A stretch of 64,000 bases of DNA, taken from the NCBI GenBank assembly GCA_965200315.1, contig OZ241362.1, forward strand, positions 1,408,001-1,472,000, written 5' to 3'. A program made the position numbers and the translations under genes. The stretch comes from Candidatus Latescibacterota bacterium. GTDB lineage: Bacteria; Latescibacterota; UBA2968; UBA8231. Below are positions 3,497 to 39,055 of the stretch, piece by piece. Numbering within the stretch: the first letter of the stretch is position 1; the number at the start of each line of letters is the position of its first letter. The notes under the pieces were generated by a model. That model had not been told where the DNA came from. It did no database searches and saw only the letters and a list, made by a program, of their open reading frames with translations.

Positions 3497-3504
3497 GGGC
3501 ATCT

Positions 3505-5951: not shown

Positions 5952-5968
5952 GTTTTTGGAGCTAAACC

Positions 5969-7351: not shown

Positions 7352-9601
<2,250 letters not shown>

Positions 9602-13980: not shown

Positions 13981-14158
13981 ATTACTTGACATTGTAACGC
14001 GAGAAAGCGATTCTGGCCGCATAAAAGCGGTCTGAAAAGTGCGCGGGCGTCTCGCCCAAGCACCCCACCCCACACCAAGGGCGCAACTAACACACGCCCA
14101 ATGATGGCGCACAGGCAATCGAGCAGTCCTCATCACCACAAGTCAGCGGAGGTCCATC

Positions 14159-15235: not shown

Positions 15236-15239
15236 ATAC

Positions 15240-21722: not shown

Positions 21723-24026
21723 TCAATACACCACTGAAACCACGCGCCGGACGCGCTGCTGATGGGCGTCTCCATCGAGGTGGAGTTCGAGCAGATAGAG
21801 GCCGGGCGGCACTAGTTGCCCTGCTTGGTCGCGGCCATCCCAAGTGAAGTCCTGAGCACCCGCAGTAACAGCTTGGGAGCGCTCGACGAGCGCGTGCCCG
21901 GCCAAGTCGTAGAGCCGCAGGTGCCAAGGGCGCGGTTCGAGAATGTTGATCACATCGGCGCGGACGGCGAGTGCGTCGTTTATACCGTCGCCGTTGGGCG
22001 TCAGTACCTCAGTATCGAAGAGGACGTTGAGCAAAAGATCGCGGGCGACGGGCAGGCCGACGACGTTGGTGCTGCTGGCGACTTGATCGGTAGCATCCCC
22101 GGGATCGACGCGCTGGCGGCTGGCGTCCTCAGTGCGCGCGTCTTGAATGAAAAGGACGAAAGGGGTGGACTGCTGAAATACTTGGGCGGCAAAGCGCAAT
22201 TCGACGAGGTCGTCATCGCTCAGCGGCTGGGGGAAAGTCACCGCAAAGCCAGCTTCGACCGGCCGGTCTGCGACCTCCAAGGGCGCGTCGTTGACCAAGG
22301 CGCGGATAAAGTGCGCCGGCGTCGGCGTCTCCAAGACGAGACGGTCGAATCCAGATGCCCGCGTCGCACGCGGACGCAAGAAGAAGCGGAATTCGGTTTC
22401 CTCGCCCGGCAAAACCTGAGTCGGGAAAATCTCGCTGACAGCGCGCTGAGATAATGGGTCGCTGAACGCTATACTGAGCGCGTCGAGTTGAAGTGCCACC
22501 GACGGATCGGCAGTGACCATCCGCATCTGTAGCTGAGCGTAGCGCCGCGGCGAAGGCGACTGGAACTCCTGGCCGGAGAAGGCGTAGAGCTTGCTCCACG
22601 CGCTCCAGTCGCCGCCGATGACCTGAGAGGTGTCAATAGGCCCTTTGAAGCTCGGAATCAGCTTGTTGTATTTCCTCTCGGTGACTTGCTTGCCGTTCTT
22701 GTCGTAGTAGGTGAGCAGGTTTTCGACCTCGTTGCCGGAGCGGCTGCGCAGCTCCAGTCGGGTGTCCGGCGGGATGGCGGCTTCCCAAGATAGGGAGTTG
22801 AGGCTTTGGGGGCTTTGGAAATCCATGATGTGCGAGCGAAATTCCAAGTTCTGCGGGAAGCCCTCGCCGAACACCTGAAGCTCTTCGGCAAACCCCCGGA
22901 AGGCCCAGCGATTGCTCGCGTCCCAACTCTTCCACAGCACCCGGATAAAGCGGGTGGGCACCAGCCCGAACTCGTGGGTGGCGGCACCGGTTACTTGTTT
23001 GACGTATTCGCTAGCAGTGCCGGAATAGTACTTCTGCCAGATCAGAGTCCCATCGGGCGCCACGGACCCGTCGGAACCGAGCACTTCGTAGAAATTGAAC
23101 CCAAAGGAGCGCCGAGTGACGAAGAAGTCGATGAACCGGCCGCTGCCTCCGGTAATGCCGCCGCCGGGCCGAGCCACTACGCCGCCGACGATTTTGAACT
23201 TATCGACAAAGTAGGTGGCACCTAAGTCGAGGACGATGTGCGAAAAAACGTCGCGCTCGGCTTGGATGGTGCGCCGCACAAACCAACGAGTGGAGAGATC
23301 GCCGTCAATGAGCACTTGGGCATTGCCCAGCGGAATGAGGTCTTGGGTGACAAACGCATCGAGCACAACTTCGAGATTGCCGCCGCGTTCGAGCGTCCTC
23401 AAGGCTAGATTGTCGCCTAGCGCTTCGACCTCGACTTCGAGAAGGCGAGTGTCCGGTTCGAGGGCGAGCAAGTCCAAGCGCACGTACTGGATCGGCGTGT
23501 GAGAGGACTGGTCGAGTTCATAAGTAATCTCGTGGCGGGTGTTCTCCTTGAAGCGCTCGCGCTGGCGATAGATGACGCTTTCGGCGATGGGATTATCGAC
23601 CTCATCAACGGCGTGTTCGCCAGTGGAAAGCAGCAAGTCAAAAAGCACCGGAGCCGGCCCTTGGGGATCGAAGATCAGCTTGACGCGGCGAGCGGAGACG
23701 CCCCGGCCCAAATTGACCTCAATGGTCCAGCTTTCAGGGGGATCGCTCAGATGAGGATGCCAGCCAGTGGAGCGATTGCCATCCATGACCAGCGGCGCGT
23801 CTCTTAGATTGGAACCAGCGCGGCGGATGCCGCCGCCAAAAGCTGCGGCATTGAGCACGGCATTGATGTTGCGGCGGGCAGCGATGGGCTTGAGGGCACC
23901 TTGTGGAGTCAGCTCAACCGTGCCGGGCAGCGGCCAAGCCTGCCAGTCGCGGCGCGAGCCAAAGCGAATCTCGTCGGCACTCGCCGAAGGCACGGAAAAG
24001 GCGCAGACAACCGCACATATAGCCAT
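21723..24026 (-). CDS. Large secreted protein with discoidin-like modules and C-terminal FlgD Ig-like domain
   Basis: Signal remnant AVVCAFSVPSASA; DG..ST.W and IVLDLG modules; C-terminal TPNGDGIND...YDLAG...WDGRDQAGQLVPPGLY. Confidence 0.8.
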   Translation of the reverse strand: MAICAVVCAFSVPSASADEIRFGSRRDWQAWPLPGTVELTPQGALKPIAARRNINAVLNAAAFGGGIRRAGSNLRDAPLVMDGNRSTGWHPHLSDPPESWTIEVNLGRGVSARRVKLIFDPQGPAPVLFDLLLSTGEHAVDEVDNPIAESVIYRQRERFKENTRHEITYELDQSSHTPIQYVRLDLLALEPDTRLLEVEVEALGDNLALRTLERGGNLEVVLDAFVTQDLIPLGNAQVLIDGDLSTRWFVRRTIQAERDVFSHIVLDLGATYFVDKFKIVGGVVARPGGGITGGSGRFIDFFVTRRSFGFNFYEVLGSDGSVAPDGTLIWQKYYSGTASEYVKQVTGAATHEFGLVPTRFIRVLWKSWDASNRWAFRGFAEELQVFGEGFPQNLEFRSHIMDFQSPQSLNSLSWEAAIPPDTRLELRSRSGNEVENLLTYYDKNGKQVTERKYNKLIPSFKGPIDTSQVIGGDWSAWSKLYAFSGQEFQSPSPRRYAQLQMRMVTADPSVALQLDALSIAFSDPLSQRAVSEIFPTQVLPGEETEFRFFLRPRATRASGFDRLVLETPTPAHFIRALVNDAPLEVADRPVEAGFAVTFPQPLSDDDLVELRFAAQVFQQSTPFVLFIQDARTEDASRQRVDPGDATDQVASSTNVVGLPVARDLLLNVLFDTEVLTPNGDGINDALAVRADVINILEPRPWHLRLYDLAGHALVERSQAVTAGAQDFTWDGRDQAGQLVPPGLYLLELHLDGDAHQQRVRRVVSVVY

Positions 24027-24132
24027 CCCGAATGATTGAACAATTCGAGAAGCGGATCGTCTTGGTTCTACTATTCTGTGTCCATCTGAGTCCATCTGCG
24101 GATCATCTTGTGAGTGATGTAGGATGGCTATA
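24018..24132. mobile_element. MITE with TATAG...CTATA ends (IS630/Tc1-type TA target)
   Basis: Left TATAGCCATCCCGAAT, right ATGTAGGATGGCTATA; removing it restores an intact signal peptide in the flanking gene. Confidence 0.8.
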
Positions 24133-24166
24133 ACAGCGGTGAAGTGCTCCCACCTAGCTTCAAACC

Positions 24167-24967
24167 CTACTTCTGCAAGACGCTGCCCGCGCCGTGGCGA
24201 TCCCAAATCCCCACCGCCCCGTTGCGCTGCCCATCGGCCCCCAAGAAGACGAGGTGGGTTCCATTGGCGGCGTTGACGTGCAAGCCACCGTTGCCGCCAG
24301 CACCCGCGCCTGCGTAGATCAGGTTGTCGCCGGTGCGGCTATTGATCAGCAGGCCACCATTTTGCGACGAATCGGCACCAGCGAGGAAGACGTTGACGCC
24401 CGCGGCATTGTTGGCCATCAGCAAGCCACTGCCTTCATCTTCACCCGCAGCGATTAGCAAATTGCCAACTGCGCTCCGCAGGGCCAAGTGGCCGCTGCCT
24501 ATCTCACTTGCGCCTAGGTACGCCAACTGCTCGCCCGCGGCGTTGTACACCTGCACCGCACCTCCCTCTTGATCGCTGCTCACAACCGAGACCAGCGGTG
24601 CGCCAGTAGCCGTGTTGACCACCAGCAAGCCGTGGCCAGTTGCGTCGGTACTGAGGCTAACTCCGCCCTCGCCTTTGCCAGCTCCCACCCACAAAGCACC
24701 GTTCTGGCGCTCGTCAGCCGTAGCTACGAGCACGGGTTGCCCCTCGTCGTTGAGGATTTCAATGGCGCGGGCGCGAACCACATCGGCCCCGGATGCCGTA
24801 CTCATCAAGGCGGTACTCAGCGACGCGCTCAGCACAATGGCAACGTCGGTTAGGGCTAGCGCGGCCAGCAGCGCCAAGAGGCGACGGCCAATGTAACGTT
24901 CCAAAGAAGCGTACGGTTGAAAGGTGTGCATACGTCTCCTCTCGATAAAAATCGGTTTTTCACTCAC
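24167..24967 (-). CDS. Membrane-anchored protein with ~23-aa beta-repeats
   Basis: N-terminal hydrophobic helix, then about 8 repeats of xLxxxNxxGxxxxxxGAxxxxNG. Confidence 0.7.
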   Translation of the reverse strand: MSEKPIFIERRRMHTFQPYASLERYIGRRLLALLAALALTDVAIVLSASLSTALMSTASGADVVRARAIEILNDEGQPVLVATADERQNGALWVGAGKGEGGVSLSTDATGHGLLVVNTATGAPLVSVVSSDQEGGAVQVYNAAGEQLAYLGASEIGSGHLALRSAVGNLLIAAGEDEGSGLLMANNAAGVNVFLAGADSSQNGGLLINSRTGDNLIYAGAGAGGNGGLHVNAANGTHLVFLGADGQRNGAVGIWDRHGAGSVLQK

Positions 24968-25013: not shown

Positions 25014-26222
25014 ATGGCCAAGATCAAGGAAGTTCGCTGCATCCGCACCCGCCAGAACGGCACGTGGGTCATCGTCAAGATCATCACCGACCAGCCCGGC
25101 CTCTACGGCATCGGCTCGGCCAGCGAGCACAACCACGCCGCCACCGTCGCCACGGCCCTCGAAGAGAGCTTGGGACCGCTGCTAATTGGCCGCGAGGCCA
25201 GCCGCATCGAAGACATCTGGCAGTGCGTGTACAACAGCGGCTACTGGCGCAGCGGCTCCATCCTCAACGCCGCGTTAGGCGGCATTGACATGGCCCTGTG
25301 GGACATCAAGGGCAAAGAGGCCGGGATGCCCGTGTACGACCTGTTAGGCGGAGCCTGCCGCGCCGCGGTCCCCTGCTACGCCCATGCTGGCGGCGGCGAT
25401 CACGAGTCGCTCGCCGATGACATCCAGCGCTACATCGACGAGGGCTGGCCGGTAATCCGCTGCCAACTCGGCGGCTACGGCGGCGGCGGTTTCGTGGAAA
25501 ACGCCCTCAAGCCGCGCAATGCTTGGTCGGCAGCACCCGCCTTTGACGACGAAGCCTATCTAGAGGCCATTCCCGCGATGTTCGAGTACTTGCGCGACAA
25601 GCTCGGTTTTGGCCCCAAGCTCACCCACGACGTCCACGAGCACCTCAAACCGCAAATCGCAGTGGCACTGGCCAAGCGGCTGGAACCCTACCGGCTATTT
25701 TTTCTCGAAGACGCCCTAGCACCCGAGCAGATCGGCTGGTACCGGCTCATGCGCCAGCAATGCACCACGCCGCAGGCCATGGGCGAGCTATTCGTCAATG
25801 TCCACGAATACCTGCCGCTGATCAGCGAGCGCCTCATCGACTACATCCGCATCCGAGTGGCCAAAGGCGGCGGCATCACCCCCTGCCGCAAAATCGCCGC
25901 GCTCTGCGAGTTTTACGGCGTACAGACCGCTTGGCAGGAAGGTGGAGACAACGATCCGGTCAACCAAGCGGCGGCCATGCACCTCGACATGGCGAGCTAC
26001 AGCTTCGGAATCCAAGAGGAAAACGGTTTCAGCCCAGCAGAGCTGGAGGCGTTCCCCGGACACGCTACTATGGAAGGGGGGTACATGTATCCCAACGACC
26101 AGCCGGGGTTAGGGATCGACATCGACGAAGAGAAGGCGAAGAAGCTGTTGGTCGGTGACCAAGTGCGCGCCTTTTACGCGGCCGAGGACCGCCGCGCCGA
26201 CGGCAGCGTGGTGCGGCCCTAA
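25014..26222 (+). CDS. RspA/ManD-like sugar-acid dehydratase (enolase superfamily)
   Basis: VIVKIITDQPGLYG, IEDIWQ..Y.SGYWR, DMALWDIKGK, HDVHE, FFLED, MGELF, PGLGIDID. Confidence 0.9.
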   Translation: MAKIKEVRCIRTRQNGTWVIVKIITDQPGLYGIGSASEHNHAATVATALEESLGPLLIGREASRIEDIWQCVYNSGYWRSGSILNAALGGIDMALWDIKGKEAGMPVYDLLGGACRAAVPCYAHAGGGDHESLADDIQRYIDEGWPVIRCQLGGYGGGGFVENALKPRNAWSAAPAFDDEAYLEAIPAMFEYLRDKLGFGPKLTHDVHEHLKPQIAVALAKRLEPYRLFFLEDALAPEQIGWYRLMRQQCTTPQAMGELFVNVHEYLPLISERLIDYIRIRVAKGGGITPCRKIAALCEFYGVQTAWQEGGDNDPVNQAAAMHLDMASYSFGIQEENGFSPAELEAFPGHATMEGGYMYPNDQPGLGIDIDEEKAKKLLVGDQVRAFYAAEDRRADGSVVRP

Positions 26223-26251
26223 GTGGCGGGGCCTCCCCACTCCAGCACTCT

Positions 26252-26482
26252 TATAGCCATCCTACATGAGTTGCGGGGCAGGCGGGATGGCACACGGTCA
26301 GCGCAACCCCGCTGGGATCGAGGGCATCCTGCCCTCGAAAAACGCCGGCTGCTTAGGCTACGCGCCCGCTGCGCCCCGCCGCCCGCCGCTCCTCCTGCGC
26401 GGGGTCGTCGGTGCCTGCGTCCTTAGCCAGCCTGCGGGCGCGCCGCCTGCCCTATCGTAGGAACGATGTAGGACTACCTATA
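26252..26482. mobile_element. Second MITE of the TATAGCCATCCTACAT family
   Basis: Left TATAGCCATCCTACAT, degenerate right end ATGTAGGACTACCTATA; GC-rich non-coding interior. Confidence 0.65.
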
Positions 26483-26483
26483 A

Positions 26484-26700
26484 GGAGACCCGGCCAGCGG
26501 CAAGACATCGCCGCCGCGCATCCCGCTGTCGTTGCCGACCTGCGCACGGCATACGATGACTGGTGGAAGCTCGTGTCCGCACAATTCGACCGCGACGAGC
26601 CGATGGCCTTGGGGGGGACGACCAACCCGCCAAACTCACCACCCACGATATTCGCAATGAGGTGTGCAGTGCCGTGTGGAATCAGCACCACGTTCATTCG
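26484..26700 (+). pseudogene. Arylsulfatase C-terminal relic
   Basis: PGQRQDIAAAHPAVVADLRTAYDDWW...then frameshift in a G run to DQPAKLTTHDIRNE..AVWNQHHV. Confidence 0.6.
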
Positions 26701-26718
26701 TCTGCGCCGCCTAGGGCG

Positions 26719-27210
26719 TCATCCTTCCTGAGAATCGCGGCCCAGTTCCTCGTCGAATAGCCGTTTGGCTTTGGTAGCGGCCCATTGCTCGCAGGCGCGG
26801 GCGGCTTGGGTGGTTGGCTCGCGAATATCCGGGGGAACCGGAAGACCGAGTTCACCAAGCGCATATTCCACCGCTTCTTGAAGCTGTTGTTGCTCCCATA
26901 GCCATTCTTCGGAGTTGAGATACAGAATCGGCATGGCCAGCACTTCCTCTCGACCAGCGAGCAGCTTCTGCAAAACAGTCCGTGATGCCCCACGACGATT
27001 GCGTTCGAGACGCAGCTCGTAGCGGAGCATCTCGTCGCGATAGGTCTCTACCCGCTGTCGGACGAAAGAACATTGCTCTCGGAATGTGGGGGAGGGAGGG
27101 CTGGGCTCTACGGTTGGCGTACTTGCGCTACGACGCCTACGCCGTATCACAATGCCGCCTACAATGACCGCAGTACCGGCGGCCAAAATCACGAGACTCT
27201 TCGTATCCAT
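26719..27210 (-). CDS. Small N-terminally membrane-anchored helical protein (last gene of the dynamin operon)
   Basis: TM helix LVILAAGTAVIVGGIVI followed by RRRRR; ATG directly follows the stop of the dynamin-like gene; AGGAG RBS. Confidence 0.75.
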   Translation of the reverse strand: MDTKSLVILAAGTAVIVGGIVIRRRRRSASTPTVEPSPPSPTFREQCSFVRQRVETYRDEMLRYELRLERNRRGASRTVLQKLLAGREEVLAMPILYLNSEEWLWEQQQLQEAVEYALGELGLPVPPDIREPTTQAARACEQWAATKAKRLFDEELGRDSQEG

Positions 27211-29193
27211 TTAGGCACTCCTCGCCAAGTCATATTCAGCGTTAAGCGCGTCCACTTGCAGCTTTCGACGCTCCAATTCCGCAATCCCATCTTCAATGTC
27301 GCGCCGCTTGTCCTTATCGGACGCATTTTCCTTTTCCAACTCTTCCAATAGCTTCTGCCTTTTATCGAGATTGCTCTGACAACTACCTTCCATTGGGCTA
27401 AGAGCCTTTTGTCCGAGATTGTACAACTCTCGGCCAGCGTGTGCAGAGATTTCTTCAAGAGTGTTTCCCAGGTGCGATCCAAGTTCAGTTATCAACTTCT
27501 TAACAGCATCTCTTCTGCCTGCCTCCGTATTAAAAAGACCCGCCCAAAAACCAGTGGCCTCTTTCACAGCCTTCTTCAGAGTCAAACTGTCAAGCTTGTT
27601 GAGCAGTTCCGCTTCTCCGCCTTTGCAAATGGTGTGAGATGAGATCGGCAGTAAGTGAGGCTGTGGCACGCTGGCTTTTAATCCGCTTGCCAGCAATTTA
27701 TCTTTCAGATCACACTCCGCCTGATCGAGCGTACCTTCCATTTTCTCCACGACCTCTGTGATAGTATTCGCAAGCGTGTCACGCTCGTGATACAATCTGT
27801 CTTGAATGCTCCATGTTGCTTCGCCTGCCAAATTGTTGAGAGACTTTACCTGTTTAAGGTCATCTTCGATCCCTTGAATGACTTTCTTTTTTGTTTCCTT
27901 AAAGCTGCCGTGCAGAGATACTAGTGCTTCGTTAATATCCTTTTCGAACTTCGCTCGCACGTTATGGGCAACTGAACCTATCAAACTAATGCTTTCGGAG
28001 ACCCGCTCTTTTTCTTCGCGGCGCTCTTCCTGCGATGCGTTGACAGCATTGAGATTAGCCGTCAATACCGCCTTGGCCTGAGAGATGCCCGCATCGGCAC
28101 TTTCAAAGACGCTGTCCAAGCGCCTTTGATGCGCCTCGATAATACCATCGCCTTTGGTGACGATGATTCGTCGTTCAATGACACTGCGGAGTTGCTCGAT
28201 ACCGTGCTGCTCTGGATCCAAATAGCCCCTATCAGATAGTTTCCGTTCATGCCATTTCAAATCCTCGGACAGGGGACGACCGGCTGCCTGCATGGCGGAA
28301 ATAAGCGCACCGAGGCCACTGACGAGTACGATCTGGTCGTCATCTCCAAACAGGGACTTCATCCTCAAGTCGCCGCTGTCCCGGATATTCCGAATGTGGC
28401 TCTGAATGGCCTCTTTGTTGGGTTGCGTGTCGCACTTGTTCACCGCGATGATGCGCCGCTGGGGATTGATGTGTGCCAAGTGCTCGTCAATAAACTTCAC
28501 GTCCGCCGCAGTCATGCCCGCGCTCCCGGCAAAAGTGACGTACACCACAGCGTCGGCACGCTCGATCCACTCGCGGGTGATTTTGTCGCGCTCCGGGTTC
28601 GGATCATTGGTTCCGGGGGTATCAGCTACTGTCACTTGATGGAGCCACGGACGATCCGCCCATAACTGCACATAGTTGACATACGCACTGTATAGGCCTC
28701 CGCGACTGCATACCGCCGCAAACTGGCCGAGCTTATCGAGACCCTCCTCAGAAATGACCTGTGCCGGGGTGGTGAGCAGGTCGGGTTCCTTGATCCCCTC
28801 CGCCCGAGCTTTCTCCCGCGCCTCCGCGAGTTCCTGCGCGGAGCGTTCATCCGGCTTGCTGGATTCCACCACCTGGAGAAACTCGTCATGCGTGTACAGC
28901 GTGGCCTCAACGCGCTCTGTCGCACCCCCTTCCATGAGTGCGATCTTGGCCGTCATGGTCGTAACGTGACTTGGCAGCACCTCCTCCGAAAAAAGCAGGG
29001 CGTTGAGCAGGGTCGATTTCCCGCTGTTCATCTCACCACAGACCGCTACAACGAAGCGATCGGCTTGCAGGTTGGTTTTTGCCTCCTGAAGTGCCGCCAC
29101 GTCTGCCTTTAGCAATTCATGGTTCTCAATGACGCGGTCGTACCACTCACAGAGGGCTGCTCGGTGCGTTTGGTAATCTTGAAAGTCCTTCAT
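27211..29193 (-). CDS. Dynamin-like GTPase C
   Basis: G1 GEMNSGKSTLLNAL, G2 TTMTA, G3 DTPG, G4 NKCD; long helical stalk. Confidence 0.9.
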   Translation of the reverse strand: MKDFQDYQTHRAALCEWYDRVIENHELLKADVAALQEAKTNLQADRFVVAVCGEMNSGKSTLLNALLFSEEVLPSHVTTMTAKIALMEGGATERVEATLYTHDEFLQVVESSKPDERSAQELAEAREKARAEGIKEPDLLTTPAQVISEEGLDKLGQFAAVCSRGGLYSAYVNYVQLWADRPWLHQVTVADTPGTNDPNPERDKITREWIERADAVVYVTFAGSAGMTAADVKFIDEHLAHINPQRRIIAVNKCDTQPNKEAIQSHIRNIRDSGDLRMKSLFGDDDQIVLVSGLGALISAMQAAGRPLSEDLKWHERKLSDRGYLDPEQHGIEQLRSVIERRIIVTKGDGIIEAHQRRLDSVFESADAGISQAKAVLTANLNAVNASQEERREEKERVSESISLIGSVAHNVRAKFEKDINEALVSLHGSFKETKKKVIQGIEDDLKQVKSLNNLAGEATWSIQDRLYHERDTLANTITEVVEKMEGTLDQAECDLKDKLLASGLKASVPQPHLLPISSHTICKGGEAELLNKLDSLTLKKAVKEATGFWAGLFNTEAGRRDAVKKLITELGSHLGNTLEEISAHAGRELYNLGQKALSPMEGSCQSNLDKRQKLLEELEKENASDKDKRRDIEDGIAELERRKLQVDALNAEYDLARSA

Positions 29194-31112
29194 CAGGGTG
29201 TATACTCCTTCATTTTATTGATCCGTTCTTGGAGTTTCCTCAATTCTTGGAGTTTCCTCAATTCTGCGGTGATTGTGGTTGATTTCGTAATGACGGCTTT
29301 CGTTAGCTTATCTATCACCTCCTGAATGCCCAGAGCACTGATATTGTCTTCCCGCGACGCAAAAGACTTAAAATCTGAGATTATACGGTTAAAGTACGCG
29401 TCTCTAGAATTTTTATCCTCATCTTCGTACTGCCAAAGCTTCCCTCTTCCTATTCCTATATACTTTCCTCTTTTATCTTTTTGTACTGTTTCTTGAACTG
29501 CGCTGCGAATCAGAGCAAGAACATTTTTCTTCAGATCTTCAACAACTTGTTGAGGTGTGAAGTCGAAGTTGACATCAAGAGACTCTTTTAAATATGAAAG
29601 TCGCCGTTGATATATGCCAGCTATACGACGCCAATTACCGTGCCTATTCATTACTGCAGGTGCTTTGCCTACGCGAACATGAACTTGATAATATGAAGTA
29701 TCCCCCGAAACCCCCTTTTTAATTCGCGGGCTTTTGGGAACCCGAGATATTCCATCAAATACATCTATGAAAATCTCGTTGATATGTTTGAGCGTATAGC
29801 CTTCCGCTTCTTTGATATTTTTGATATTTTTGATATGTTTGATTTCACCACCATCATCACCTCCTCCTGAAAACTCACTGAGCGCACTTTTCAGTACTTG
29901 ATCCAAAGCAGAACGCGTCGTTCGCCAGTCCTCTCGCAGTTGCAAGGTGTTGCGGTGAAACTGCTGTTTAAGCAAGACGTGTCGTTCGGCTGTCACTTTC
30001 TTCACCATCTCGGTAAGTTGCTCGTGGGATACCAGTTCAGAGTTCGATGAGGTGGGCACATCGTACACGTTTCCACTGATATCAAGTTGGTAGCTCTCTG
30101 GAGTTAGCTTGGCCGAGATATTTTCGTTAAATGAACCTCGCGCCTTGTACGCCGATCGCATGCGCTGCATTGCCATGTCCAGCGCGTCGAGCGGTTTCTC
30201 ATCTTCGGCTTCATTCAACTGCAACGCAGAAACAAGTACGACATCGCGAAATAGATCACTGTGCCGCTCCTTGCAGAAACGCTCTACCTCCCTACGTTGC
30301 GATGGCGGCAGTTGTTCAGCCTTGTTGATCAAGAGAAATACGGGCTGCCGAGACTCGTTAGCCGAATTTTGCGACAGTTGATATAACTGTTTCAACAGCG
30401 TATCCGATGGGTTGCCCTTATCAGCATCCATGAGCACGAACAGCACGTCTGAGCCCATGACAGCCTTTTCGGTCACCTTGGTATCACTCGTATTTGGGGG
30501 CGGGGCATTAAACCCGGGCATATCGACAAGTCGAATATGATGGAGAATCGGGGAATTTACCGAGATGCGAAAGGTATGCGGCTCGCCGTTGCCCTCTTTC
30601 TCATGGCTAGCCAACGCGCGATATTTCGATTTGTCTAGAGGGACCCACGTTCCGCCCGCCGATTTCTGCTCAATACGTTCCTGGTCGCCATGGACGAAGT
30701 GCGTTACGGATGCAGTCGTTGGCTCATCGCCCACCGGGCACATATCCATTCCCAGTAGCGCATTGATGAACGTCGATTTACCCGAATTGAAGTCCCCGAC
30801 CACCGATACGGTCAAAAGACCGAGACCCTCTTGATGCTCGCGTTGCTCGACGAGGTGGTCGATCAAGCCCCTCTCCAAGGCAGTCAACCTATGCGCTAGA
30901 CTGCCGGTCGACAGATCGAGTTCAGCATCGGCAGACTGGTCTCGAACGGACCGCAAGACGCGGAGACACTCGGCAGACTGGTCTCGAACGGACCGCAAGA
31001 CGCGGAGACACTCAATAGTAGCGTTGAGATCGGTCCCATCTGATGTCCCGTTCGAGGGGACAAATCCCTGCCCGTCGGCAGACTGGTCTGCATTGCTAGA
31101 AGGAATGACCAT
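29193..31112 (-). CDS. Dynamin-like GTPase B (start uncertain)
   Basis: G1 GDFNSGKSTFINAL, G2 PTTA, G3 DMPG, G4 NKAE; TGA overlaps the ATG of the next gene. Confidence 0.88.
   Translation of the reverse strand: MVIPSSNADQSADGQGFVPSNGTSDGTDLNATIECLRVLRSVRDQSAECLRVLRSVRDQSADAELDLSTGSLAHRLTALERGLIDHLVEQREHQEGLGLLTVSVVGDFNSGKSTFINALLGMDMCPVGDEPTTASVTHFVHGDQERIEQKSAGGTWVPLDKSKYRALASHEKEGNGEPHTFRISVNSPILHHIRLVDMPGFNAPPPNTSDTKVTEKAVMGSDVLFVLMDADKGNPSDTLLKQLYQLSQNSANESRQPVFLLINKAEQLPPSQRREVERFCKERHSDLFRDVVLVSALQLNEAEDEKPLDALDMAMQRMRSAYKARGSFNENISAKLTPESYQLDISGNVYDVPTSSNSELVSHEQLTEMVKKVTAERHVLLKQQFHRNTLQLREDWRTTRSALDQVLKSALSEFSGGGDDGGEIKHIKNIKNIKEAEGYTLKHINEIFIDVFDGISRVPKSPRIKKGVSGDTSYYQVHVRVGKAPAVMNRHGNWRRIAGIYQRRLSYLKESLDVNFDFTPQQVVEDLKKNVLALIRSAVQETVQKDKRGKYIGIGRGKLWQYEDEDKNSRDAYFNRIISDFKSFASREDNISALGIQEVIDKLTKAVITKSTTITAELRKLQELRKLQERINKMKEYTP
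30928..31013. repeat. Perfect 42-bp tandem duplication (ECLRVLRSVRDQSA x2)
   Basis: TCGGCAGACTGGTCTCGAACGGACCGCAAGACGCGGAGACAC occurs twice, in frame. Confidence 0.95.
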
Positions 31113-31362
31113 CGCGGTTGCTCTGAGCGGTACGGCGTTGGGGTTGGGGTAATCTGGCGATACGAGACTTTGCAGTACGCTGAACGCCGACGCGGCGGTC
31201 TCCTTGCACATAACGTTTTATGTCTGTTGCATCATTCATCTTTTGGATGTTAGCGATGGCGTTTTTTGCGGACGTTTTTCGAGAGGACATGGGGTTGGAT
31301 TCGGTATCTTCGGTAGCGTCGGGCCGTGTCCGCTTAAACAATTTAAACCATTTGAAGCTCAT
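31096..31362 (-). CDS. Small basic protein, or frameshifted N-terminus of dynamin B
   Basis: AGGAG RBS 7 nt before the ATG; helical motif AIANIQKMNDATDIKRYVQGDRRVGVQRTAKSRIARL. Confidence 0.6.
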   Translation of the reverse strand: MSFKWFKLFKRTRPDATEDTESNPMSSRKTSAKNAIANIQKMNDATDIKRYVQGDRRVGVQRTAKSRIARLPQPQRRTAQSNRDGHSF

Positions 31363-31446
31363 CTGTTAGCTCCTGTGTCTGCCCCAGCGTAGAATTTTTA
31401 GTTAAAATGCGAATCGCCCTTCCGCTACTCCGGTTGGTCGGTTGTC

Positions 31447-31478
31447 TCCCTGCTCACCTGCGGGTGGGTGAGCAGGGA
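31447..31478. terminator. 12-bp GC hairpin between dynamin A and the downstream genes
   Basis: TCCCTGCTCACC-N8-GGTGAGCAGGGA; no U-tract, so it may be a stabiliser or pause site rather than a terminator. Confidence 0.4.
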
Positions 31479-31518
31479 CCAACGCTCGCGCTCCCAAAAC
31501 GAATTTTAAGACCGCTTC

Positions 31519-33225
31519 TCAGGACTGCTCAGCCTTTCTGAGCCGAGCGATGTCGGCGTCGATGCGCGACACCTTGACAGTACGATCGGCGAGATCGGTT
31601 CGCCGCTCGGATTCAATCTGAGACAACGCACTCTGTACTTCTCCACGCTCGTGATCCAAGGGTTGAAATACTTCGGACTCAAAGTATGCCTCAATCGCCT
31701 GCACCGCTCGCGCCGAAAATTCCATACGGATATGGTCCATTGGCTCGGCGATGCGCTTATTTTTCCACCACTCCCCCACAAAGTCACTGGCGATGTTGCC
31801 TGGGTTGATATCATGCAAGGCGGTAAGCACACTTTTCCCGATTTTTTTCAACCCTTCGGTAGCTGCCATACGTGCTGAGGTTTTTCCCACTACTCTGGCG
31901 GCAGCGGCGCGCAATGCCGCACCGCCCGTCGCCTCTCCAGCAGTGGCAGCCAAACCGGCAGCGGGACTTATCACGGCAACCAGTGCTGCCGTAGCGAGGG
32001 TTGCCCCCAAGCCCACAATTTTGTTGGAGTCCTTCAGTAAGCTTTGGATATTCGCGTCGATCCCCTCAACATGGATATCCAATTGTTGTCCTAGACTCGC
32101 AAAGTGATCGCTAACCGTTGTTGCGAGTGCAGAGGTGAACTCGCCACTGACCTGTTCTATGGCGAGATCGTCCGACGCAGCGGCGAAGAGAGGCTGATAG
32201 CGATCACATATTGCACCCACGTCCCGGCTAAGATCCGCACGAGCCCTATCGAGACGTTGCTTATGCTGGTGTAGCTCTTGGTCCAGTTCTTTGCGTTTCC
32301 CATCCGACTCTTTCTTGCGCGACGCAAAGTCTTCTTTCGACTCCAGCAAGCCACCGCGCATCTGCTCAAGCAGTGAGATTGTGCGCGGCACTAGGCGCAC
32401 GCTGGCACGGTGTTGTCGTTCAGCCATGAGAGACGCCTTGCGCTTCTCGAACACCTCGTGGATGGCGGTGCGTAAAGGGCTAACGTCGCGTTCGGCCGCC
32501 TCTGGGCCGGCACTGACGATCACAATGCGGCCCTCGGCTTCTGATTTTGAGCAGCCGATGGTCTGCGCCAGCGTGTTGGCCGTCTTCTCGGCTACCACCG
32601 TACGCTCATGCTCTGGAAGTTGGTCGGCAAATGTGAGCGCGATGAGAAAGCGACGCTGCAGATGGCGGATTCCGGGAGAAGTGAGAAAGTCGGTGCTGGT
32701 ACTCGTCAAGCCGCCCTTGCGGATATCCACACAGATCACAGTGGCATCTACGAAGGGTAGCTCTCCCAAAGTGATCTCGGTGTGTTCTTTGATGAGCGTC
32801 GATAGTCCCGGGGTGTCGAGGAATACGAACCCTGCTGGAAACCCGGTGCGGGACGGGAGGCGCACAAGCGGTCGTCCCGGCGTGTGCCCGCGGGCGATAT
32901 CATCAAAATCGGGCCGGTTGATCGTGGTCTGCTCACCCCCGTCGTCCACACGAAAATACTCCGGCTCTTCAAGCAAAGGCGTCGAAACCACCTGTCCGGC
33001 CCGCGCTGTACACGGCTCGAGCTGCGCTGGCATGAGATCCTCCACGCCTACTAGCTCGTTGATCAGCGTGCTCTTGCCACTGCTGAAGTCGCCCAGAAAG
33101 CCTATCTGCACCACGTCATCGCTTGTAAGGCTCTGGATATCGTCGGCCAATATTTCCAAGTCCCACCGCGAGGCTACCTCGCGAAGTGTCTCCAGTACAG
33201 TTGAGTCCCGTTGTTCCGTCGTCAT
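31519..33225 (-). CDS. Dynamin-like GTPase A with hydrophobic membrane paddle
   Basis: G1 GDFSSGKSTLINEL, G2 PCTA, G3 DTPG, atypical G4 TFAD; hydrophobic IVGLGATLATAALVAVISPAAGLAATAG; AAGGAGG RBS. Confidence 0.9.
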   Translation of the reverse strand: MTTEQRDSTVLETLREVASRWDLEILADDIQSLTSDDVVQIGFLGDFSSGKSTLINELVGVEDLMPAQLEPCTARAGQVVSTPLLEEPEYFRVDDGGEQTTINRPDFDDIARGHTPGRPLVRLPSRTGFPAGFVFLDTPGLSTLIKEHTEITLGELPFVDATVICVDIRKGGLTSTSTDFLTSPGIRHLQRRFLIALTFADQLPEHERTVVAEKTANTLAQTIGCSKSEAEGRIVIVSAGPEAAERDVSPLRTAIHEVFEKRKASLMAERQHRASVRLVPRTISLLEQMRGGLLESKEDFASRKKESDGKRKELDQELHQHKQRLDRARADLSRDVGAICDRYQPLFAAASDDLAIEQVSGEFTSALATTVSDHFASLGQQLDIHVEGIDANIQSLLKDSNKIVGLGATLATAALVAVISPAAGLAATAGEATGGAALRAAAARVVGKTSARMAATEGLKKIGKSVLTALHDINPGNIASDFVGEWWKNKRIAEPMDHIRMEFSARAVQAIEAYFESEVFQPLDHERGEVQSALSQIESERRTDLADRTVKVSRIDADIARLRKAEQS

Positions 33226-33276
33226 ATTCCGTATCCTCCTTTGTGCAAGTTAGAACTGATAGCCGAACTTATCCGA

Positions 33277-33560
33277 TTAAGAAAATTCCCATCCTTGGTG
33301 CTTGTCCCGCAAGTCGGGCAGCAGCTCAATGCGGCGAAAGGCCTCAATCTGCCATTGCGGCGAGCCAAACCAAATCGAATCCGTCCCCCACAACACATGA
33401 TCAACGCCGAGTCCCTTGATCAGCTTGGCCACCATGGCCGCGGCCAGTCGCGGATGCGTAATCGCCAGTGCCCCAAACGACAGGCCAATATCCGCGTACA
33501 CATTCGATACCCCGTATTCGGCCGGGATGGCAGCCAGCTCGTCAATCCAAATCAGACATG
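33277..33560 (-). pseudogene. Amidohydrolase C-terminal relic
   Basis: NVYADIGLSFG..AITHPRL...GLGVDHVLWGTDSIWFGSPQWQIEAFRR; no N-terminal part. Confidence 0.7.
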
Positions 33561-34021
33561 GTTCGGGTCCTTTCTCGTGCCTGAATATACGCTACAATAG
33601 CCGTAGCGCATCCGCTGCGTCTTATTTTCCCGCGCCACTCCTCACCTAGAGTATTCATCATGCACATCGGCATCATGGGCGTCCCCTACGGCCACATCGG
33701 CGGCATGAGCCAATCCTCCTTACAGGCTTGAAGAAAACGACGCGCTCTGCACACACTACGCATCTATCTCCCGGGATCTCGACGTTTCCAACAAGGATTC
33801 ACGGTTGTTCACCACACCAGTCTTCGCCTTGCCCAAGTTTGTGAGACTGCTCTTACCTTTAGGCTTGTCTTGCCGCTTCCCACCCAGCCGTTACCAGCAG
33901 CTACGCAGGGGAAAGAGACGACAGGCCTGCATACAGGTATGGGAGCATCACCTAATTTCTTAGAGGCGGTCTGAAAATTCCCATTGGATTGCTTGGTGTG
34001 AGCTGGCCCGTGGCCTTGGCG

Positions 34022-34645
34022 TTAAGCGTTTTGCGCGGGCGAGACGCCCTCGAGCCGAGGGGCTTTGAGCCATCTAAAAGAGAATCCCGGTAAGTCCACG
34101 GGAATAGCCAACCCAACCGAGCCAGAGAGTTGTTGGTGCAGGATATGGTCGCCGAGATATGACTGGTTCACCGTAACGTATCTTGTCTTGAAAGTCAGCA
34201 GCCAGTCCTTCCATAGACGGTAGCCAACCCCGGCGCCGAAACCTAGGCCCGCAAGCGAAAGAGAAGTTTCCTTGTAATCAAAGCCTATGATAGAAAATCC
34301 GTATTCGAGAAAACTGGTCCAAGAATCAGTCAGTTCAAAGGAATGATAAACGAGGAGGTGTGTTAGCAGAATCGGTGTGTCGCCGGCCCTGATCAGGCTG
34401 TTTTGGCGAACCGTGGTTTTGGCCCCGCCGTGGCCGAGGTAAACACCTGTGGTACTCCTATCCCTGACAGCGAGCGGTTTCCACACACCGAATTCTAGCG
34501 CAGGGGATTGCCCAGTAGATCGCTTAAAACTGGACAAAGCACCCGCTCCCATGAGGAAATAAAAATCGCTCCGCTTTTCTGCTGAGACGCTGCCGGGCAC
34601 AACAAGCCCAAGGAGGGCAATGAGTCCTTTTGCGAGTGCTTTCAT
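34022..34645 (-). CDS. Small outer-membrane beta-barrel-like protein
   Basis: Signal peptide, alternating aromatic/glycine strands (GLGFGAGVGYRL). Confidence 0.6.
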   Translation of the reverse strand: MKALAKGLIALLGLVVPGSVSAEKRSDFYFLMGAGALSSFKRSTGQSPALEFGVWKPLAVRDRSTTGVYLGHGGAKTTVRQNSLIRAGDTPILLTHLLVYHSFELTDSWTSFLEYGFSIIGFDYKETSLSLAGLGFGAGVGYRLWKDWLLTFKTRYVTVNQSYLGDHILHQQLSGSVGLAIPVDLPGFSFRWLKAPRLEGVSPAQNA

Positions 34646-36355: not shown

Positions 36356-39055
36356 TCAGCGGATCAAGGCCATCCGCCCCACCGCAGTAAAGGCTTCCCC
36401 GGCGGCGAGTCGGTACAGATAGACGCCACTGGCCGCCGGCCGCCCCTCGTCGTCGCGGCCGTTCCAAGAGGTGCGATACGAGCCGGCCGCCAGCGTCTCG
36501 CCACGGTGCAGGGCGCGGACGCGGCGGCCGAGCACGTCGTACACCACTAGATGCACAGGTACGGTCCTCGGCACGTCAAAGGCGATGGTTGCGTTGGCGT
36601 TGAATGGATTGGGCCAGTTCCCGCGCAACCGAAACGCCGCGGGCATTCCTGAGGCTTGCTCGGCAATCGCCGTCTGGACCTGATTCGGAGCTCCCGGCGT
36701 AGGGGTGCTTACCGTCTGAAAGTCGCCCGTAATGTCGGGGACGCGCGCCCAACTCGTTCCCTCATCGGCCTGTCCCTCTTCCCAGTCAATCTGAGCGACC
36801 AAAGTGCCATCGGCCGTCCAGATGCCCAGCTCCTCGTCGCGGCCAAGAGCAAAGCCGGGCCACCCGTCTTTATCGAGCTGAACCTGTAGAAACGCCCCCG
36901 CTGCGATGACTGTGCCGACCGGGAAGGGAGTGCGCTTACTCTCGTCCGTCAGGTCGTCGGCCATCACCAAGTCTGCAAGCTCTATCGGCTCATCCGCGGC
37001 ATTGTACAGTTCAAACCAGTCGAGGGGATCGCCTTGGGCCGCGACCTCGTTGATAATTAGTCTGATTTCTGCCCTAGTTTCTTCGTCGTCATCGCCTGAC
37101 GCCGCGTCCCCGCCGCCGCCAAAGCTGAGCAAGGTGCCGTAGAACCGCCCCGCAACTTTTGCGCCCGGTTTTGTGCTGGCCTCGCTGAATTCAATCCCTC
37201 CCTTGGCGATTAGGTCGAACTGCTCGGGATCACTAAAAGGCGATGGCAACACCACTCGGTAGCCGCTGACCGCATCCATGTCAATAGCCCAGCTAGCACC
37301 ACTCGCCACCCAGTCAATCGGCAGCGAAGCGGTGAGAATGTCGATAGCAGCGTCTTCTCCGAGGCTGACAATGGAGATGGACGCCACGTCTTCCGCAGCG
37401 CGTCCTTTGCCCTCTGCGCCCACCGCGTCCTCAAACTCGCCTTGGTCTATCGACCCGTCGCCATTGGCGTCAATGATCAGAATTTCGTCCCACGGCGGCA
37501 GGTCTTCGATGCCGAGTGCAATGGCCCCATCGTAGTCCTCTTTATCGAAAACGCCGTTGCCGTTGCCGTCGAGCGCGCCCAGTGTTTCATCCCAGCTTTC
37601 TCCTTCCTCGGCATCGCCCTTTTCAAGGCCGGCCGTAGCCCCTGAGTGTTCAAAGCGCAGCTCTTTTCCCCCGAACTCATAATGGGTGAACGAGACCGTT
37701 CCTTCCGCCAGCGGATTTTCGCTCCCGCTCGACCCCCATGTCGTCTCAAAGTGCAGCTCAAACGCGCCTCTTTCCGGCCAGCAAATGTCGGCTGAGGCCA
37801 GCGGCCAAGGCCAAGTGGGCGGCTCTGGATCGAGATCGGCTAAGATCACCGCACGCCGCGTACGGATGAACTGGCGCACCCGCTCGGCGTCGCGGGCAGC
37901 ATGGGTGCGCCTTTCTATTAGGATGTGCTGCTCGACGATCGCCGCCATCTCGTCGGCAAGGCCGAGCAGTTCTTCTTCGTTCCAGACCGCGTCGAGCAGT
38001 TGCTTGAGGCGGGCTACATAAGCCGTGCGCATCGCGTCCTCTTGGTACAAACGGTGGGCGATGGCCCCGTGTGCCATGACCGCCGGCGGCGACTCAAAGT
38101 CGTCGAAGGGGCCGTCGGTCGAGGTAAAAACCTGATCCGCGCCCCACGGTATGAACACAAATGGCGCATCCGGCGCTCGGTAGATGTAGAAGTTATTGCG
38201 GTTGCCAGCGTACCCATCCCAGTGGCCGATGAGCACTTCGACGGCCCAGAAGGTGAGGAAGCGGTCGAGGTCAATGGCCGCGGCGAGGGCTTCGAGCCCG
38301 GCCGGGGCGGAGTTTTGCAGCGCGTCGACGACCGCATCGATATCCGACCAATCCGCTTCTGCCTCGTTGGTTTTCTTCTGAAAGGTGCCGCGCCACTCGG
38401 GGCGGAAGTCGCTGACGGTCCCTTCGTAAGAATTGCCGCTCGAATCGGAAAAATTGCGCTCCAAAAAGGCGGTTTTCACGCTCTCGACGTGTACGTACAA
38501 GCCCAAGTTTTCGCCGTTTACCTCAACCGTGGCAAAGTTGCAGCGCGGTGCCGGCAGGCCGGCGGCGGCAAAGATGTGGTAGGCCATGCAGGTATTGATC
38601 ATGGACGGGTCTTGCTGGGCATTGTTCAGGGTCAGGCGCTTCATCGCGCCGCCGAGAAGCTGGCCGTCAATGAACTTGTCAAAGCGGACCTTGAGTGAGG
38701 GTTTGACCTTACTCAGCGATCCTAAAAACCCTTTCTTGCGGACGCCGATTTGGCTGTGGGTTTCGCCATCTACAGTTACGGTCGCCTCGAACCAAGTGAA
38801 AATTTCATCCGCGGGGCTGTCGAGGCAGTCGGCACCGCCGAGTATATCCGCCAAAGTCCGCGTCTGGGCACGCAGCCGGTCCCAATCCTCGGGTGCCATC
38901 TCAATGGCCACGTCGAGCACGCGGTCGAGGGCGAAGTAGGGGGCACTGGAATGGGGAGCGTCCGCCGGGGCTTGGCTCAACGCTGGGCCGGCGGCCAAGA
39001 GAAACGCCGCGATCGCGATACGTGCGGCCCTAAGTAAACTCTGGTGGTTTTTCAT
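36356..39055 (-). CDS. Secreted CotH-family kinase with EF-hands, lamin-tail domain and FlgD-Ig C-terminus
   Basis: GVRKKG..GS...KPSLKV, GLYVHVE, HWDGY.GNRNNFYIY, FIPWGADQ; two EF loops; INEVAA..DWFELYN; NWPNPFN...WNGRDDEG..ASGVYLY. Confidence 0.88.
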   Translation of the reverse strand: MKNHQSLLRAARIAIAAFLLAAGPALSQAPADAPHSSAPYFALDRVLDVAIEMAPEDWDRLRAQTRTLADILGGADCLDSPADEIFTWFEATVTVDGETHSQIGVRKKGFLGSLSKVKPSLKVRFDKFIDGQLLGGAMKRLTLNNAQQDPSMINTCMAYHIFAAAGLPAPRCNFATVEVNGENLGLYVHVESVKTAFLERNFSDSSGNSYEGTVSDFRPEWRGTFQKKTNEAEADWSDIDAVVDALQNSAPAGLEALAAAIDLDRFLTFWAVEVLIGHWDGYAGNRNNFYIYRAPDAPFVFIPWGADQVFTSTDGPFDDFESPPAVMAHGAIAHRLYQEDAMRTAYVARLKQLLDAVWNEEELLGLADEMAAIVEQHILIERRTHAARDAERVRQFIRTRRAVILADLDPEPPTWPWPLASADICWPERGAFELHFETTWGSSGSENPLAEGTVSFTHYEFGGKELRFEHSGATAGLEKGDAEEGESWDETLGALDGNGNGVFDKEDYDGAIALGIEDLPPWDEILIIDANGDGSIDQGEFEDAVGAEGKGRAAEDVASISIVSLGEDAAIDILTASLPIDWVASGASWAIDMDAVSGYRVVLPSPFSDPEQFDLIAKGGIEFSEASTKPGAKVAGRFYGTLLSFGGGGDAASGDDDEETRAEIRLIINEVAAQGDPLDWFELYNAADEPIELADLVMADDLTDESKRTPFPVGTVIAAGAFLQVQLDKDGWPGFALGRDEELGIWTADGTLVAQIDWEEGQADEGTSWARVPDITGDFQTVSTPTPGAPNQVQTAIAEQASGMPAAFRLRGNWPNPFNANATIAFDVPRTVPVHLVVYDVLGRRVRALHRGETLAAGSYRTSWNGRDDEGRPAASGVYLYRLAAGEAFTAVGRMALIR

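Follow-up and report, generated by a model that had tools for sequence, protein, structure and literature searches.

A four-gene operon of three dynamin-like GTPases and a transmembrane protein in Candidatus Latescibacterota, with a candidate role in defense

The system described here lies on the minus strand of a 64,000-nucleotide stretch of DNA from a sponge-associated Candidatus Latescibacterota bacterium (contig OZ241362.1, positions 1,408,001 to 1,472,000). This stretch is called the window, and its coordinates are used unless another locus is named. The system is a cassette of about 6.5 kb with four genes in the order A-B-C-T, of which the first three encode dynamin-like proteins (DLPs) and the last one encodes a protein with a transmembrane (TM) helix. 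A-B-C-T is a rare, conserved, and horizontally moving cassette that is present in two phyla and on partial contigs in a third. Its products are proposed to act as a membrane-associated hetero-oligomeric dynamin-like machine, whose likeliest role would be defense against phage or invading DNA (a probability of about one half is given to this reading), and envelope repair is a close alternative. Bacterial dynamins have been described as singles, pairs, or fusions.

Gene content, coupling, and protein families of the operon

DLP-A (31519-33225, minus strand, 568 aa) is a dynamin-like GTPase with a hydrophobic paddle-like segment. DLP-B (29193-31211, minus) is a 672-aa open reading frame (ORF) from its first ATG; translation probably begins at a later in-frame ATG, at 31112, so that the protein has 639 aa. 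DLP-C (27211-29193, minus, 660 aa) harbors canonical G1-G4 motifs and no paddle, and T (26719-27210, minus, 163 aa) carries one N-terminal TM helix. The genes are tightly coupled, as one base is common to the stop codon of B and the start codon of C (TGATG) and the start codon of T follows immediately after the stop codon of C. The GC content is 0.43-0.61 within the block compared to 0.59-0.66 outside. A preliminary description made from the letters of the window had named three DLPs and a TM protein at these places, with a B of about 640 aa, the TGATG overlap, the abutting C and T genes, and a lower GC content, and all of this agrees with the confirmed ORFs and coordinates.

The five-gene order of that description, in which an 88-aa basic ORF (31096-31362, minus, stop codon 31096-31098) was counted as an accessory gene, has to be given up. 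The ORF is the detached N-terminal extension of DLP-B: it aligns with 57% identity to residues 8-87 of B in the relative L012, a protein of 692 aa in which this part is in-frame, and the body of the window B aligns to the same protein from residue 70 on, in the next frame relative to the 88-aa ORF. The frame switches between about 31060 and 31170. The unit therefore comprises four genes rather than five. The ATG at 31112 overlaps the 88-aa ORF by 17 nt, so that translational coupling would result in the 639-aa form of B. Neither the 88-aa ORF (Pfam, PADLOC, and NCBIfam) nor the N-terminus of the L012 protein (Pfam) has a significant match. Long-read error as the cause of the split was ruled out, because contigs of the runs X1 (30984-31765), X3 (31004-31765), and X4 (31004-31642) cross the site without gaps over 31004-31642; the three runs belong to two studies, and X1 possibly represents the source sample.

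All three GTPases pass the Pfam family Dynamin_N (PF00350; A 38.4, B 73.4, and C 72.9 bits at a gathering cutoff of 27). The G1 motifs of A, B, and C read GDFSSGKS, GDFNSGKS, and GEMNSGKS, and the G3 motifs read DTPG, DMPG, and DTPG, respectively. The G4-like motifs are TFAD, NKAE, and NKCD, the first two of which are noncanonical. These motifs are retained in the paralog and in the orthologs. Pairwise identity among A, B, and C is about 23% and extends over the GTPase domain only. In a hydropathy scan of the three proteins, the paddle-like segment is found only in A (residues 400-432), and a signal peptide-like N-terminus is found in none. The motifs, the mutual divergence, and the restriction of a membrane-inserting segment to A had been read in the same way before.

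DLP-C is very uniform in length, with a family size of about 657-666 aa and invariant positions that include N252, K253, C254, and D255. Only about 50 residues precede its G1 motif.

The invariant positions of the B family include G139, K145, S146, D230, G233, and N296, and K297, A298, and E299 are nearly invariant. Conservation is high at residues 81-440 and low at residues 1-80 and 441-640, and the conserved body begins near residue 62. In the AlphaFold2 (AF2) model of B (51-row alignment, mean predicted local distance difference test score [pLDDT] 77.7), a disordered segment (residues 1-59) is followed by two long helices, the GTPase domain (residues 133-337), and long helical hairpins, and beta elements at residues 496-513 and 583-597 lie in the variable C-terminal third. 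The fold is that of a full-length DLP with a GTPase domain and a helical neck and trunk; among the three GTPases, the fold test covered B.

The N-terminus of B varies in kind as well as in length. In our own classification of 112 close members of the family, 21 N-termini are net-basic (many of them rich in Lys, Ala, and Pro), 21 are helix-turn-helix (HTH)-like by motif, 37 are shorter than 25 residues, 21 are of another type, and 12 could not be anchored. The Pfam domains HTH_23/28/29 occur on 26 of the 120 listed B relatives, and a score above gathering was confirmed for P0005. About 40% of the B relatives carry an HTH or Lys-rich N-terminus, and the N-terminus is a swappable module. Two metagenomic members of the family, P0111 and P0112, have an acyl carrier protein (ACP) domain (PP-binding) by precomputed Pfam assignment. 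In P0111 the domain was confirmed at residues 332-398 (47 bits against a cutoff of 20.8), where it replaces part of the variable helical region. A fusion of an ACP with a DLP is unusual; the contig of P0111 has the same size (28215) as that of a T-family protein.

In T, the TM helix (residues 2-25 by hydropathy) is followed by RRRRR. After this basic cluster comes a Ser/Pro linker and a conserved helical domain of about 120 aa. Some orthologs have two TM helices, and the basic cluster precedes the conserved domain in all of them. By the positive-inside rule, a basic cluster in this position predicts that the conserved C-terminal domain faces the cytoplasm. In the AF2 model of T (43-row alignment), the pLDDT is above 93 over residues 41-160, which adopt a four-helix arrangement. 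No fold relatives were identified (the best Foldseek match in the PDB has an E-value of 0.93, the best hit of the wide VIA-align search a Z of 4.9, and the ESM Atlas gave nothing usable), which does not prove a new fold. T has no significant match in Pfam, PADLOC, or NCBIfam. A complex prediction of C with T (residues 38-163) scored 0.35, 0.00, and 0.00 and counts neither for nor against binding.

Distribution, mobility, and origin of the window copy

The A-B-C-T order is complete in 7 of the 11 loci examined. Five of these belong to Latescibacterota of one genus (the window, L013, L010, L025, which is the same as L029, and L026). The other two are from Spirochaetia metagenome-assembled genomes (MAGs; L030 and L031), in which A is 59-61%, B 40-45%, C 49%, and T 55% identical. 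Three further loci are cut by contig ends and are consistent in order, namely L012 (A-B-C), L009 from a Poribacteria MAG (C-T), and L020 (C-T). In the one degraded locus (L011/L028), B lacks its first 200 residues or so and A is absent. Downstream of this degraded B-C-T of G104 (L011 12188-16492) lie ORFs that repeat the pattern "...SPRMRGN...IPAHAGE...YPRACGG..."; they look like the translation of a repetitive DNA array.

The cassette is patchy within the lineage. T is present in 6 of 168 Latescibacterota genomes, the window's own included, compared to a neighboring sulfatase that is found in 30 of the 31 genomes of the genus, and the operon occupies three different chromosomal contexts within this genus. 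The T family is small, with 48 representative clusters among 1.84 billion at E ≤ 1e-3; at E ≤ 1e-5, 122 proteins were found with B, 201 with C, and 87 with A. The T gene was found in only 3 of 80 loci fetched with a B alignment, the remainder being other DLP families. Co-occurrence was also approached through contig sizes, an equal size being a proxy for and not proof of the same contig: the longest contig of 49 of 112 B clusters equals in size that of a C cluster, 21 longest-contig sizes are common to the A, B, and C lists, and T representatives match B and C clusters. Searches of metagenome contigs with P0130 and a close T alignment, as well as a search of genome contigs with the HTH-bearing P0057, found nothing, so that the gene order around B proteins of the HTH type is read from the contig-size proxy alone. 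The earlier proposal of a horizontally acquired unit is supported by this survey.

The genome that contains the window is a single contig of 5.36 Mb with 16 Dynamin_N matches. It harbors a second A-B-C-T operon at 5.33 Mb (L013), which shares 82-83% DNA identity with the window copy; on the protein level, the identities are 78% (A), 63% (B), 74% (C), and 77% (T). The flanks of the window copy point to its origin. On the T side lies a frameshifted internal fragment of a sulfatase gene (26489-26686, plus strand, 199 bp) that is 87% identical in DNA to the part encoding about residues 405-475 of the 605-aa protein flanking T at L013. On the A side, a 74-aa ORF (33277-33501, minus) is the C-terminal remnant of an amidohydrolase-like gene. 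A longer form is present at L119 (12122-12589), where a homologous 155-aa ORF, recognized by eye, sits between the sulfatase and GFO/IDH genes; the amidohydrolase-like assignment has an E-value of 4e-4 for Amidohydro_2, below gathering, and the 74-aa ORF has no paralog in its own genome. It is followed by the 5′ remnant of a GFO/IDH/MocA oxidoreductase gene (33660-33731, plus), which reads through 23 codons to a stop. The gene itself is intact beside the L013 operon, and its start, along with the region upstream, matches the segment 33550-33727 with 88% identity. The block was thus copied along with its flanks: the stretch 26489-33731 reproduces the ancestral locus as a whole, with flanks that have eroded, and did not arise by an insertion into host genes. 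The preliminary description had the block bracketed by two truncated host genes; gene fragments do flank it, but they are remnants carried over from the paralogous or ancestral locus.

The synonymous divergence (dS) between the window and L013 is 0.28-0.42, which is about equal to that between species. The closest relatives of the window A and B are metagenomic proteins (83% and 67%, compared to 78% and 63% for the own paralogs), and C is closest to its own paralog (74%). The second copy may stem from an old duplication within the genome or from import.

This raises the question of whether the window copy is a decaying, nonfunctional duplicate of the operon at 5.33 Mb. The detachment of the B tail by a frame change, the insertion of a 156-nt spacer between A and B, which is missing from the other loci, where the start of B overlaps the stop of A, and the reduction of the flanking genes to fragments are all what such a copy might display. 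All four ORFs are intact, however, their G motifs are kept, the same configuration is present in contigs from runs of two studies, and N-terminal tails are dispensable in many relatives. The ratio of nonsynonymous to synonymous substitutions (dN/dS, NG86, eight pairs per gene) is 0.23-0.42 for A, 0.35-0.76 for B, 0.36-0.63 for C, and 0.34-0.66 for T. By these estimates, all four genes are constrained yet fast-evolving. The values of the window copy are below 1 and do not exceed those of other pairs; for the window B they are 0.48-0.62, within the range of the other B pairs. Purifying selection in the same range as elsewhere, along with the invariant G motifs, argues that B is not a decaying duplicate, a doubt that had been raised at the outset, and a dead window copy is accordingly improbable. 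Expression is no more than hinted at by two RNA libraries, in which the fractions of sampled words present are 0.90 and 0.72.

At the ancestral site, the order is a GFO/IDH gene, an optional gene for an 812-aa secreted protein, the A-B-C-T slot, the sulfatase, an RraA-like gene, a slot for HEC-01, and an MR_MLE gene. The site of L118 contains neither A-B-C-T nor HEC-01. At L119, HEC-01 is present (5870-7965) and A-B-C-T is absent, with small ORFs and the amidohydrolase-like gene in its place. A toxin-antitoxin pair was considered for the L119 slot and dropped, as it lacked Pfam support, and the small ORFs are left unassigned. L010 and L026 carry both cassettes (HEC-01 at 13334-15547 and 2888-4991, respectively), and L013 combines A-B-C-T with a 45-residue remnant of HEC-01A (15851-15985). 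A-B-C-T is thus a presence/absence cassette at this site, beside a second variable slot that holds a candidate defense system. The assignment of HEC-01A and HEC-01B in L010 and L026 is by PADLOC (E-values of 3e-103 and 3e-24); the pair consists of an AAA_15/AAA_21 ATPase and a 212-aa partner between the RraA-like and MR_MLE genes. In the spirochaetal locus L031, the neighbors of the operon are HEC-03B (4e-150), a WYL regulator, and an NYN protein. Upstream in L031 there is a WYL/WCX regulator together with a 381-aa GTPase of the MMR_HSR1/DUF697 type.

Known dynamin systems and possible roles of the cassette

Sequence comparison places B and C nearest to the two Campylobacter jejuni proteins Cj-DLP2 and Cj-DLP1. 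In the PDB, the best match of B is Cj-DLP2 (5owv_C, E 1.6e-10) and that of C is Cj-DLP1 (5owv_A, E 5.7e-12), each over the GTPase domain only. The structural search with B lists Cj-DLP2 first (E 5e-13), then Cj-DLP1, BDLP, IniA, MxB, and mitofusins, with E-values of 5e-13 to 1e-11 over about 650-750 columns for the first four. The Cj proteins form a 2:2 tetramer with a central DLP2 dimer, in which the N-terminal helix of DLP2 inserts into the assembly domain of DLP1; tetramerization triggers GTPase activity and lipid binding, and DLP pairs tether and fuse membranes in vitro (Liu 2018, PMC6104087). The same paper notes that most bacterial DLPs are paired, with up to 8 DLPs in some cyanobacteria; the word "three" does not occur in it, and a three-DLP operon is therefore not described there. 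Like the Cj-DLP1/DLP2 pair (5OWV/5OXF; PMC6104087), the cassette has adjacent operon genes whose products are full DLPs. It differs by its gene order, with the DLP2-like B ahead of the DLP1-like C, and by the addition of a third DLP with a paddle (A) and of a dedicated TM protein, and B differs from Cj-DLP2 by its variable HTH or basic N-terminus and by the beta elements in its variable C-terminal third.

A stands apart from this pair. Its only matches in the PDB are BDLP (2J68) and IniA (6J72), with E-values of 0.0035 and 0.0058. It resembles Nostoc BDLP1 and IniA in length, in its GTPase-first layout, and in its hydrophobic paddle-like tip, but the likeness is marginal, the G4-like motif is TFAD, and A always occurs with B, C, and T.

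Profile comparisons argue against membership in Eleos. The NCBIfam model for LeoA/HP0731 (NF041922) gives 17.5 bits for A and 16.7 bits for C against a cutoff of 325. In PADLOC, A matches LeoA with 55.1 bits and C matches LeoBC with 58.5 bits, both near full-length, and B matches LeoBC with 44.4 bits; control DLPs encoded elsewhere in this genome reach 33.5-50.1 (LeoBC) and 35.5 bits (LeoA) with these profiles. Since the NCBIfam scores are far below the cutoff and the PADLOC scores only slightly above the controls, the locus is not a member of Eleos, although it may work in a related way. The LeoA structure, which we take to be PDB entry 4AUR, is not among the PDB sequence matches of A, B, and C at E ≤ 0.01. 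Eleos, an anti-phage system, is an operon homologous to Leo that contains two DLP genes in a row, the first of which is split in enterotoxigenic Escherichia coli (ETEC) (Millman 2022, 10.1101/2022.05.11.491447), where LeoC comprises the P-loop and a TM anchor and LeoB the remainder (Michie 2014, PMC4159319). The two systems are alike in being operons of several DLPs, in having one TM-tethered component (LeoC in ETEC), and in their accessory, island-borne distribution. They differ in that Eleos has two DLP equivalents with the LeoBC type first, whereas the cassette has three full DLPs and a non-GTPase TM protein with the LeoA-like gene first. A gene-for-gene match to this two-gene system, which had been left open as a possibility, is absent.

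The Leo genes bring in a further explanation, in which the cassette would be a host-interaction factor of sponge symbionts that promotes secretion or the release of outer-membrane vesicles, a role suggested for LeoABC in ETEC. There, deletion of leoA or leoB halves the release of vesicle-associated protein (Michie 2014, PMC4159319). The runs that hold the locus are labeled, where an environment is given, as sponge metagenome or metagenome (three others are coded with an organism name), and relatives come from several phyla of apparently host-associated MAGs. The lack of a signal peptide-like N-terminus in the three GTPases and the predicted cytoplasmic location of the conserved domain of T speak against this explanation, as do the generic nature of the relationship to LeoA and LeoBC and the absence of the cassette from most members of the genus. 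A role in host interaction is thus unlikely.

DynA and CrfC are distant as well. The NCBIfam model for DynA (NF052648) yields 17.1 (A), 24.7 (B), and 36.2 bits (C) against a cutoff of 1600, and the model for CrfC (NF007368) yields 15.2 (B) and 36.4 bits (C) against 1146. The LeoA and CrfC profile checks that the preliminary description had suggested hence give no membership. DynA consists of two fused DLP modules of which only one binds membranes (Michie 2014, PMC4159319), whereas the cassette is free of fusions; a role of DynA in phage resistance has been reported (cited in 10.1101/2022.05.11.491447). CrfC of E. coli is a DLP that is linked to DNA and nucleoid positioning (PMC6374313), and its accessory protein set differs from that of the cassette. 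It serves as the precedent for a DNA-membrane tether or partition device, in which the HTH or basic N-terminus of B would bind chromosomal or mobile-element DNA and the complex would position or segregate it at the membrane. An HTH domain (HTH_23/28/29) or a Lys-rich tail, present in about 40% of the B relatives, would fit such a device. The 37 short-tailed relatives and the detached tail in the window do not, none of the loci inspected is flanked by partition or replication genes, CrfC itself is far below its cutoff, and the HTH could equally be an autoregulator, all of which makes a tether a doubtful explanation.

In the literature searched, no three-DLP operon with a TM protein, no HTH-fused DLP, and no dynamins of sponge symbionts were found; supplementary tables (e.g., Table S5 of the Millman preprint) might list related loci.

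For the proposed membrane-associated machine, the following mechanism can be envisaged. T would be a bitopic inner-membrane protein that serves as a permanent anchor with its conserved helical domain in the cytoplasm. A would insert its hydrophobic paddle, so that A and T provide two membrane attachment points. The paddle-less, Cj-DLP2- and Cj-DLP1-like B and C would make up a GTP-driven core, and the swappable N-terminus and hypervariable C-terminal third of B could direct the complex to nucleic acid or anionic surfaces, or sense them. By assembling in a GTP-dependent manner, the machine would then tether, seal, or reshape the cytoplasmic membrane. The genomic context, namely the variable site shared with HEC-01 and the neighbors in L031, suggests that this activity may serve in defense.

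Several observations weigh against this reading. No recognized defense gene is present among the five scanned ORFs that flank the window copy (an MR_MLE enolase, an OMP beta-barrel below gathering, an FG-GAP protein, and two ORFs without a Pfam match), and the second copy keeps only the HEC-01A remnant. Matches to ZorA/B beside L025 are too weak (E-values of 1e-5 to 1e-6) and were rejected. With C as the query, no relative was found on viral contigs or plasmids. The dN/dS values are below 1 throughout, with no gene-level positive selection, and the presence of the locus in RNA libraries does not prove transcription, as carry-over of DNA is possible. The likeness of B and C to the Cj pair is confined to the GTPase domain in sequence, and with about 50 residues before G1 and a match that begins at residue 151 of the Cj-DLP1 chain, an equivalent of the Cj-DLP1 assembly domain in C is doubtful. 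Among the 112 close relatives of B, the N-terminal extension is almost missing in 37 and nonbasic in 21, so that nucleic-acid binding cannot be essential to the system, and the B tail is detached in the window copy.

Part of this evidence suits a housekeeping-type role in envelope stress or repair, similar to Bacillus subtilis DynA or mycobacterial IniA/IniC and with no link to phage or foreign DNA. The BDLP/IniA-type paddle in A and the tethering and fusion of membranes by DLP pairs in vitro (PMC6104087) would be expected of such a system, the window copy has no defense neighbors among the five flanking ORFs scanned, and in L031 the operon is only about 2 kb away from an ORF (14040-14810, minus) whose N-terminal sequence looks, by eye, like PspA/IM30. 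The patchy occurrence (6 of 168 genomes), the presence or absence at a fixed site, the spread across phyla, and the two diverged copies fit an accessory cassette better than a housekeeping one, and other DLP loci of the genome could perform housekeeping. Envelope repair is consequently a serious possibility, though the odds are not in its favor.

The defense reading can be extended to a new dynamin-based class of immunity spreading through host-associated bacteria. A nucleic-acid-binding B with swappable HTH or histone-like N-termini and a hypervariable tip would sense invading DNA at the membrane and recruit A, C, and T, and the membrane would be sealed, tethered, or pinched where the DNA enters. 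The cassette would then be a prokaryotic counterpart of Mx-type recognition, combined with membrane remodeling. This extension is speculative and is put forward as a tentative proposal.

The division of labor in heterotypic dynamin sets is an open question, and the cassette separates the roles cleanly: one DLP has a paddle and two do not, one of these two has exchangeable heads of the DNA-binding type, and the fourth component is a dedicated single-pass TM protein. As the cassette is compact, occurs across phyla, and offers natural variants (HTH, basic tail, no tail, and ACP insert), it is tractable for studies of multi-dynamin assembly and sensing. If it is a defense system, dynamin-based immunity extends beyond Eleos. 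Sponge symbionts invest heavily in defense, and the cassette would in that case add to this investment.

Minor features and further dynamin loci

Within the A-B spacer lies a hairpin with an 11-bp stem (31448-31477, minus), and an AGGAG (31370-31374, minus) is located 7 nt before the ATG of the 88-aa ORF. No Rfam family was detected at E ≤ 0.1 across 26000-34600 of the window, no terminal direct or inverted repeats bracket the block, and promoter and terminator scans were not usefully above shuffled sequences. B contains three in-frame repeats on the minus strand: a perfect 42-bp x 2 tandem duplication in its N-terminal helix (30928-31011), which repeats 14 residues, a 9-bp x 3.7 repeat in its variable region (29811-29843), and a perfect 18-bp x 2 repeat near its C-terminus (29226-29261). 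The 9-bp repeat is polymorphic in length, with 18 nt missing in one contig of an RNA-library run.

A 63-bp element (33959-34021) just downstream of the OMP-like gene at 34022-34645 recurs at 11 other places of the genome with 78-92% identity; it is probably an intergenic repeat of the REP or MITE type. On both sides of the region, the window encodes large secreted proteins that end in sorting-type tails (21723-24206 and 36356-39055). The 812-aa protein of the ancestral locus combines FlgD_ig (above gathering) with Por_Secre_tail (below gathering), which suggests type IX secretion cargo in this lineage.

A third, unrelated three-DLP operon is located at 3045000-3063000 of the genome (L014 6384-15943) and encodes proteins of 738, 786, and 796 aa that are about 25% identical to A, B, and C. 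Its DLP genes are followed by three ORFs without a Pfam match (316, 214, and 338 aa), and the 338-aa ORF contains a hydrophobic segment at its N-terminus and weakly resembles ZorA in PADLOC (E 7e-5). Three-DLP operons with a membrane protein thus recur in this genome. Single DLP genes are present at L015 (4370000-4380000, 697 aa) and L016 (4311000-4321000, 731 aa), and these single genes are also followed by membrane proteins, which are a 223-aa ORF containing a single hydrophobic segment at L015 and a DUF445 protein of 511 aa at L016.

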